604 nt of DNA from NCBI RefSeq assembly GCF_003334405.1, contig NZ_QOWM01000061.1. The stretch is one strand, 5' to 3'. Under the pieces are notes generated by a model that was not told the DNA's origin, made no database searches, and saw only the letters and a list, made by a program, of their open reading frames with translations. Made by a program: the position numbers and the translations under genes. How positions within the stretch are numbered: the stretch's first letter is position 1; the number at the start of each line of letters is the position of its first letter. This stretch comes from Escherichia coli (GTDB lineage: Bacteria; Pseudomonadota; Gammaproteobacteria; Enterobacterales; Enterobacteriaceae). Positions 198-488 of this stretch are shown here, in pieces.

Positions 198-220
198 TTA
201 ACATCTGAGTTTGATGTTAA
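198..220 (-). other. Predicted RNA hairpin in the tRNA-Lys 3' trailer (8-bp stem, 7-nt loop)
   Basis: Plus strand ttaacatc (198-205), loop tgagttt (206-212), gatgttaa (213-220) form a perfect inverted repeat. In transcript sense this is CCA-GUU-UUAACAUC-AAACUCA-GAUGUUAA, starting 3 nt after the CCA. No U-tract follows, so it is not an intrinsic terminator. Confidence 0.5.
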
Positions 221-223
221 AAC

Positions 224-302: not shown

Positions 303-378
303 TGGTGGGTGATGACGGGATCGAACCGCCGACCCCCTCCTTGTAAGGGAGGTGCTCTCCCAGCTGAGCTAATCACCC
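303..378 (-). tRNA. valZ: tRNA-Val, anticodon UAC, 76 nt with encoded 3' CCA
   Basis: Reverse complement reads GGGTGATTAGCTCAGCTGGGAGAGCACCTCCCTTACAAGGAGGGGGTCGGCGGTTCGATCCCGTCATCACCCACCA, with anticodon stem CCTCC/GGAGG, loop CUUACAA and T-loop TTCGAT. It matches E. coli-type tRNA-Val(UAC) as I recall it. The paralog name is inferred from the flanking gaps of 149 nt and 3 nt. Confidence 0.96.
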
Positions 379-429
379 GATACTGCGCTGGATACTACAA
401 ACTACTTCCACCGAACCCACCGTCATTAG

Positions 430-446
430 TGGTGGGTCGTGCAGGA
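430..446 (-). other. Orphan 17-nt copy of the tRNA-Lys 3' terminus (T-stem 3' half, acceptor 3' half, ACCA)
   Basis: Exact 17-mer tggtgggtcgtgcagga, followed by the same non-tRNA sequence as at 143 onward. Confidence 0.85.
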
Positions 447-472
447 TGACTCGCTTCGCTCGCCCTACGGGC

Positions 473-488
473 CGTTGCTGACGCAACG
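473..488 (-). other. Predicted short GC-rich hairpin (6-bp stem, 4-nt loop)
   Basis: Same stem as 169-184 (cgttgc / gcaacg) with loop tgac; the single difference from copy A is in the loop (a481 versus g177). Confidence 0.35.

Follow-up and report, generated by a model that had tools for sequence, protein, structure and literature searches.

A conserved hairpin beside the RNase E site in the lysW and lysY trailers of the Escherichia coli lysT operon

The trailers of two tRNA-Lys genes of the E. coli lysT operon, lysW and lysY, open with a short hairpin whose stem is conserved as RNA structure in the transcript and is no chance palindrome. The hairpin adjoins an RNase E site that is already known, having been mapped about twenty years ago; the finding as a whole is correct and mostly known. 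What is new is modest and consists of the covariation support for the hairpin, its membership in an RtT-like cassette, and the insertion–deletion polymorphism of that cassette.

The window, i.e., the whole 604-nt stretch of DNA that was analysed, corresponds to lysW-valZ-lysY-lysZ of K-12, with the minus strand as the transcript. Its identity to the lysT operon of K-12 MG1655 is 100%. The features are collected in Table 1. No promoter-like sites were found in a scan of the region. The ORFs overlapping the element are short and unconvincing (at most 54 aa), so that a coding reading is rejected. Rfam matches other than those in the table, to plastid UTR families and YrlA, lie far under their gathering scores, overlap the tRNAs, and are regarded as chance.

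Table 1. Genes and RNA elements of the 604-nt window (positions in the window; the minus strand is the transcript).
Feature	Position	Strand	Evidence
lysW, tRNA-Lys(UUU)	528-603; CCA 530-528	minus	ARAGORN, Rfam
GUU linker after lysW CCA, 3 nt	525-527	minus	published RNase E cut between 527 and 526
hairpin copy 2	502-524	minus	inverted repeat, RNAfold
RtT-like core, cassette 2	430-501	minus	Rfam RF00391, 54.9 bits; RNAalifold consensus
valZ, tRNA-Val(UAC), next gene past the lysW spacer	303-378	minus	ARAGORN, K-12 comparison
lysY, tRNA-Lys(UUU)	224-299; CCA 226-224	minus	ARAGORN, Rfam tRNA 79.2 bits, K-12 identity
GUU linker after lysY CCA, 3 nt unpaired	221-223	minus	published RNase E cut between 223 and 222
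hairpin copy 1	198-220	minus	inverted repeat, RNAfold, covariation
RtT-like core, cassette 1	126-197	minus	Rfam RF00391, 54.4 bits; RNAalifold consensus
lysZ, tRNA-Lys(UUU), next gene past the lysY spacer	2-77	minus	ARAGORN, K-12 comparison

Sequence, folding and conservation of the hairpin

Read in transcript sense, copy 1 follows the lysY CCA as G(223)UU, the 5′ arm UUAACAUC (220-213), the loop AAACUCA (212-206), and the 3′ arm GAUGUUAA (205-198). Copy 2 has the same layout, i.e., G(527)UU, a 5′ arm at 524-517, the loop GAAGACA at 516-510, and a 3′ arm at 509-502. Both stems have 8 bp, the arms being 100% complementary in the inverted-repeat search, and both loops have 7 nt. In copy 1 an optional ninth pair, U221.G197, would shorten the unpaired linker to GU. 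The stem is AU-rich, with two G-C pairs, and its 3′ flank is GCGUG. An earlier, sequence-only reading had placed an element at 198-223, starting 3 nt after the lysY CCA, and the inverted-repeat search and RNAfold both bear out its existence and its coordinates. The same reading took the start of the trailer to be AU-rich, single-stranded GUUUUAACAUC followed by the hairpin. This was a misreading, as 8 of these 11 nt already belong to the 5′ arm of the stem, and GUU alone is unpaired.

RNAfold assigns the two hairpins -6.1 and -6.9 kcal/mol (z = -3.6 and -3.8), and shuffles folded equally well in 0 of 200 and 1 of 200 cases, respectively. Pair probabilities in the stem are 0.8–1.0 whether the flanking tRNAs or all 604 nt are folded along with it; for the two basal A-U pairs they are 0.8–0.95 in these context folds. 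Thus, the stem that had been called stable does persist in context, but at about -6 to -7 kcal/mol its strength is moderate, and it is not very stable. A perfect 8-bp hairpin arose within the first 30 nt of the spacer in 0.07% of shuffled spacers, and anywhere in the shuffled window in 5.6%.

The arrangement had also been reported at 502-527, and it is indeed present there, as a duplicate. A 175-nt direct repeat (126-300 and 430-604, 97% identical) holds both hairpins, and the second copy is therefore no independent evidence. The repeats differ at 5 positions, of which 3 are in the 7-nt loop and none is in the stem. The two K-12 hairpin copies are recent duplicates. Inversion of the loop between them was considered and rejected, as the loops are not reverse complements of each other.

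Further evidence comes from homologues. One genome per species was scanned for the tRNA-Lys 3′ end occurring twice, 72–100 nt apart, a pattern that is independent of the hairpin sequence and does not specify a hairpin. At least 57 genuine tRNA-Lys trailers with the same core downstream were recovered, and the 26–29 nt after their CCA fall into three recurrent types. The hairpin type, that of K-12 lysW and lysY, is represented by at least 17 distinct variants from at least nine enterobacterial genera, which among the matches listed are Escherichia, Salmonella, Enterobacter, Kluyvera, Pluralibacter, Pseudescherichia, Silvania, Superficieibacter, and Citrobacter. Within Salmonella, a cassette of the hairpin type occurs in S. 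enterica subsp. diarizonae. The second type, AUCG..GGUGG..CGAU, is that of K-12 lysT, and the third, AUUUAAAGGUGGUUACUGGUAGAGAA, is that of K-12 lysZ.

In the alignment of 17 hairpin-type homologues among the matches listed (alignment A1), 98.0% of the stem cells pair, compared with 33–46% when the partner arm is slid; the homologues were grouped by likeness in both arms, which biases the figure mildly toward pairing, and the sequences are mutually related. Compensatory changes on both sides were found in these 17 homologues at 4 of the 9 pairs, as follows: U-A to C-G twice, C-G to U-A, and A-U to G-C. None of 500 shuffles of the alignment of listed matches equalled the observed pairing or the covariation score. 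The departures on a single side that keep the pair indicate which strand is folded. Among the matches listed these comprise 17 G.U cells and no A.C cell, and the folded strand is thus the transcript strand. A direct count on the same listed matches agrees, with 98.0% pairing on the sense strand vs. 86.9% on the antisense strand. A stem polymorphism common in E. coli is of the same kind, i.e., an A to G change in the 5′ arm opposite a U, giving G.U. Across the genera among the matches listed, the loops diverge while the stems stay paired.

The loop (A1 columns 19-26) does keep a partial motif, nnACUCA, across genera among the matches listed. Its ACUC could pair with GAGU of the conserved CGAGUC junction, which lies just 5′ of the pseudo 3′ end of the cassette (see below); the junction hardly varies.

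The other two trailer types do not behave in this way. The lysT-type trailer hairpin, AUCG...CGAU, is 95% paired and weaker, shows no both-side changes, and is equalled by 84 of 500 shuffles. The lysZ-type trailer starts with AUUU as well, yet no convincing hairpin was found in it. On the strength of these two types, the rule that a proven hairpin opens every cassette was dropped. The lysT and lysZ trailers (L001 1289-1315 and 2104-2129) both contain GGUGG, which is complementary to the CCACC of the tRNA 3′ end, and the lysZ-type trailer carries UGGUAGAG, i.e., 8 nt of the tRNA-Lys D arm. The GGUGG and the D-arm segment are hints, from likeness of sequence, that the cassettes may derive from a degenerate tRNA-Lys copy.

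The RtT-like cassette and its distribution in E. coli

A 98-nt cassette lies between the tRNA-Lys CCA and the remaining spacer, and the hairpin forms its first module. Rfam finds RtT RNA (RF00391) at 126-292 with 54.4 bits and at 430-596 with 54.9 bits, both above the gathering score of 45. Five such units are found by Rfam across the operon, of which RefSeq annotates only the one after lysQ, as 'RtT sRNA'. Each unit spans from the real CCA to a pseudo CCA 98–100 nt on, 98 nt being the length of the K-12 lysW and lysY cassettes. The units occupy 126-223 and 430-527 of the window (minus strand) and L001 1289-1388 and 2104-2202. The last 18 nt of the unit, AUCCUGCACGACCCACCA (143-126 and 447-430), are identical to the tRNA-Lys 3′ end, CCA included. 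Relative to the Rfam RtT model, the hairpin falls in an unaligned insertion of 43–44 nt, and it is thus outside the RtT consensus.

In the RNAalifold consensus, the core consists of a closing helix and three internal hairpins. The closing helix of cassette 1 pairs CGUGAAGGAU (196-187) with AUCCUGCACG (143-134) and leaves the tail ACCCACCA (133-126); in cassette 2, 500-491 pairs with 447-438, and the tail is 437-430. The core hairpin CGUUGC/GCAACG has 5, 2, and 4 both-side changes at three of its pairs, and the core hairpin GGC-GAA-GCC has 7 at one pair; the hairpin GCCC/GGGC is the third part of the consensus fold. The core is accordingly modelled as a cloverleaf-like four-way junction with a ACCCACCA tail and two covarying internal hairpins, a second modest addition to what was known. 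The core is G+C-rich, and the whole unit folds at -33 to -39 kcal/mol.

The CCA end can base-pair with the spacer that directly follows each pseudo CCA (112-128 and 416-436, minus strand), through CCAAUCU/AGAUUGG and through CCCACC/GGUGGG with a 9-nt loop. At cassette-free loci, related sequences follow the real tRNA directly; the match is exact between K-12 lysW and E69, and diverged after lysY.

The cassette is not a fixed part of the operon. Mapping of 22 operon loci showed that tRNA-Lys genes with and without the unit both occur. In E. coli E69 and SCPM-O-B-8794, the spacers are Lys-51-Val and Lys-48-Lys, each shorter than its K-12 counterpart by precisely the 98-nt CCA-to-CCA unit. A megablast search places the lysW-type hairpin in 2011 of 5426 complete E. 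coli genomes (37%) and the lysY-type hairpin in 4054 of the 5426 (75%). The next tRNA is ~146 nt away in cassette-bearing spacers, compared with 14–51 nt in cassette-free ones. Since the cassette is precisely absent from many E. coli genomes, it is dispensable, and the hairpin is not required for tRNA-Lys maturation as such. Gain and loss presumably proceed by recombination between the real and pseudo tRNA 3′ ends, which form 18-nt direct repeats. The polymorphism provides natural, isogenic-like comparisons for the role of RtT-type units.

Outside the window, the lysQ terminator AAAAAAGCGCCCUAAAGGCGCUUUUUU occurs twice (L001 2312-2500), with a further RtT unit and a pseudo tRNA-Lys 3′ end between the two copies. 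After lysQ, SCPM-O-B-8794 has a single terminator and no unit.

RNase E cleavage and the proposed role of the hairpin

The lysY sequence CCAG↓UUUUA (the arrow marks the cut) is a known, mapped RNase E site of 'High' efficiency (Mohanty & Kushner; PMC2190699 Table 1; PMC2241853 Table 3), which PMC2190699, where they are cited, credits to Li & Deutscher 2002 and Ow & Kushner 2002. For lysW the same site, CCAG↓UUUUA, is entered with a mapped arrow and as 'High', the source being unpublished data (PMC2241853 Table 3). The sequence-only reading, which saw an RNase E context just after the CCA, was in this respect right, and the published cut falls inside the element. In window coordinates the cuts are between 223 and 222 and between 527 and 526, inside the 3-nt linker and 2 nt 5′ of the stem. 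At the cut, AG↓UUU fits the RNase E consensus RN↓WUU, with U at +2 (consensus from PMC5222698). The A/U-rich, single-stranded RN↓WUU setting of RNase E sites is thus found here, yet only 3 nt are unpaired, and the base at +3 is the first base of the stem. Of the 17 homologues among the matches listed (A1), 16 retain the motif CCA-R↓UUU.

The processing of the operon is known from the work of Agrawal, Mohanty & Kushner 2014 (PMC4176162). The lysT operon is one transcript of about 1100 nt that runs across these spacers, and RNase P separates all seven tRNAs, working 3′→5′. Trimming of the long Lys trailers falls to RNase II and PNPase, and RNase T then completes the 3′ end. With rne-1 alone, no additional intermediates arise; mature tRNA-Lys makes up a fraction of 0.95 in the control, 0.89 in rne-1, and 0.17 in rnpA49. 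Only after inactivation of RNase P can RNase E cuts in the long spacers be seen. In rnpA49, the RNase E-dependent species VIA (lysT valT lysW) and X (valT lysW, valZ lysY) miss the first spacer probes (PMC4176162). This probe pattern is what ends near the lysW and lysY CCA would give; the alternative is trimming after a more distal cut.

As tRNA-Lys maturation is near normal in rne-1 and new intermediates do not appear, any RNase E route is redundant. RNase E is auxiliary in this operon, a back-up to RNase P as the primary enzyme, and the importance of the site has since been downgraded. The suggestion that RNase E cleavage starts 3′ maturation here thus fails, as it is RNase P that separates the tRNAs. 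To summarize, the sequence-only reading is confirmed as an observation and partly supported as an interpretation. Papers on fluoride stress and on mobilome sequencing mention the operon or rttR and hold nothing on the hairpin.

What, then, might the hairpin do? We propose that it serves the cassette-bearing precursor as a structured element beside the RNase E site, a proposal drawn largely by analogy and, in our judgment, about evenly poised between right and wrong. The relevant precedents are as follows. For RNase E to cut 3′ of a tRNA, an adjoining structured unit is needed, and a simple stem-loop can stand in for it; the unit activates catalysis by binding a groove of RNase E far from the active site (PMC9841416). 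In MicL, tandem stem-loops 3′ of the cut define the position of cleavage (Updegrove et al.; bioRxiv 341578). In the lysW and lysY trailers, the stem is 2 nt 3′ of the cut, and a second structured domain follows 1–2 nt beyond the stem.

The proposed sequence of events takes from the literature that RNase P is the main enzyme separating the lysT operon, and that RNase E can also sever the long structured trailer, at the mapped position 1 nt past the CCA. The 1-nt overhang left by this cut would pass to RNase T. The hairpin, lying immediately 3′ of the cut, would hide the remaining AU-rich trailer and so restrict RNase E to nucleotides near the CCA. In addition, it may supply a duplex for the distal groove of RNase E and so activate cleavage next to the tRNAs, as argX-hisR and MicL suggest by analogy. 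For tRNA-Lys maturation in general, the hairpin is dispensable. With the whole cassette missing from many E. coli genomes, its role would concern the cassette-bearing precursor only.

Several points speak against this role. The cut is nearer to its stem (2 nt) than the MicL cut is (5 nt). For the U at +2 and +3 of the RNase E site, the two basal A-U pairs would have to open. The rne-1 mutation has little effect, the lysZ-type trailer has no comparable hairpin, and many genomes lack the cassette. Either way, the conserved hairpin offers a clean natural test case for stem-loops that direct RNase E.

Other readings and related systems

A different proposal is that the hairpin belongs to the cassette rather than to the cut, i.e., that it is the 5′-terminal stem-loop, with 2 unpaired nt, of an RtT-like RNA of ~97 nt that ends in ACCCACCA. 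There it would guard against 5′-end-dependent decay or form part of the fold. The units do reach the Rfam RtT gathering score, the core helices covary, and the loop motif ACUCA is partly conserved among the matches listed. It also counts for this proposal that 5′ stem-loops reportedly stabilise RNA, a result that goes back to Emory, Bouvet & Belasco in 1992. The tyrT precursor offers a parallel, as its RNase E cut also lies 1 nt past the CCA (CCAU↓AAUUC; PMC2241853, PMC2190699), with a 6-bp hairpin 5 nt later. Nevertheless, we consider a cassette RNA unlikely. No stable small RNA is reported from Northern blots probed for the lysW-valZ and lysY-lysZ spacers, in either the wild type or rne-1, and other processing intermediates were surprisingly few (PMC4176162). 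RtT itself is without established function, and the hairpin sits within an insertion relative to the Rfam RtT model.

A bolder version holds that this ~97-nt tRNA-like RNA, made up of hairpin, cloverleaf, and ACCCACCA tail, is excised by RNase E at CCAG↓UU and is not debris but a mimic of, or decoy for, uncharged tRNA, with a copy number that varies among strains. rtT was once proposed to act in the stringent response. We view the mimic or decoy as a decidedly doubtful idea.

The inverted repeat could also have no RNA function at all and merely hitch-hike in a cassette of variable copy number, its symmetry being kept up by DNA-level processes, for instance template switching in quasi-palindromes or gene conversion between cassettes. 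It accords with this that the cassette is dispensable, with exact gain and loss between 18-nt direct repeats, and that the K-12 copies are recent duplicates. The pattern of substitution points the other way. The excess of G.U over A.C, 17 to 0 among the matches listed and made up of both A-to-G and C-to-U changes, is unexpected from symmetry at the DNA level, and among the same matches the stems remain paired from genus to genus while the loops do not hold. On this evidence we think the absence of any RNA function quite improbable.

We rate as very unlikely the view, also raised in the sequence-only reading, that the hairpin is a barrier to exonucleases. In this scheme, after RNase P has cut at the next tRNA, 3′→5′ exonucleases would trim the ~146-nt trailer and pause at the hairpin, and the CCA would thereby be protected or its maturation timed. 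RNase II and PNPase do shorten the long Lys trailers ahead of RNase T (PMC4176162), and a conserved stem does stand 3 nt from the CCA. However, an AU-rich 8-bp stem is far weaker than the downstream core (the unit being at -33 to -39 kcal/mol), the tRNA itself is stronger than the stem and is already enough to stop exonucleases, RNase T would be hindered and not helped by a stem lying 3 nt from the CCA, and cassette-free genomes manage without the hairpin.

The last reading, a DNA-level or transcriptional signal such as a protein operator, a pause site, or an intrinsic terminator, we find scarcely credible: the 8-N7-8 inverted repeat resembles a dimer-binding site, but in shape only, its arms drift by compensatory and wobble changes so that base identity is not fixed, and the operon is transcribed through the spacers as one RNA of roughly 1100 nt (PMC4176162). 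The intrinsic terminator was specifically rejected, as the element is not among the terminator-like sites, has no U-run, and has an AU-rich stem with 2 G-C pairs.

Returning to a structured element beside the RNase E site, we find several known systems that resemble it. RNase E sites 1–3 nt past the CCA are on record for tyrT, hisR, cysT, lysY, and lysW, and the lysY and lysW site described here is identical to the published entries. It differs from such tRNA-trailer sites in that it is not the initiating event in the lysT operon, where RNase P is primary. In the argX-hisR precursor (Clarke et al. 2023; PMC9841416), a stem-loop can replace hisR downstream of argX; here, a stem-loop adjoins the cut. 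The tandem 3′ stem-loops of MicL (bioRxiv 341578) resemble the hairpin plus cassette core, although the distance from cut to stem is 5 nt in MicL vs. 2 nt here. The 3′ETS-leuZ sponge is likewise a segment of a tRNA precursor released by an RNase E cut just past the tRNA; in contrast, spacer probes showed no stable product from the lysT operon (PMC4176162).

The closest relatives of the cassette are the RtT/tyrT repeats (RF00391; Bosl & Kersten 1991), which share the core GGAUAACGUUGC...GCAACGGCCCG.AGGGCGAG with the Lys units. Units of both kinds close with a duplicate of the cognate tRNA 3′ end, CCA included, the tRNA being tRNA-Tyr for tyrT and tRNA-Lys for the Lys units. The Lys units are without the 5′ segment of roughly 40 nt found in the Tyr units, and the 5′ strand of their closing helix is changed to match the tRNA-Lys pseudo 3′ end. 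In the tyrT trailer (L122 1364-1392), the cut CCAU↓AAUUC is followed 5 nt later by the hairpin ACCACA-GCGA-UGUGGU, whereas the trailer of the second tRNA-Tyr gene in the tyrT operon has no comparable hairpin. Finally, the cores of the Lys units (102-182 and 373-486, minus strand) are traversed by short ORFs that are rich in arginine and start with TTG, MRQQRPVGRAKRVILHDPP..., and that recall the protamine-like tpr of the tyrT repeats.
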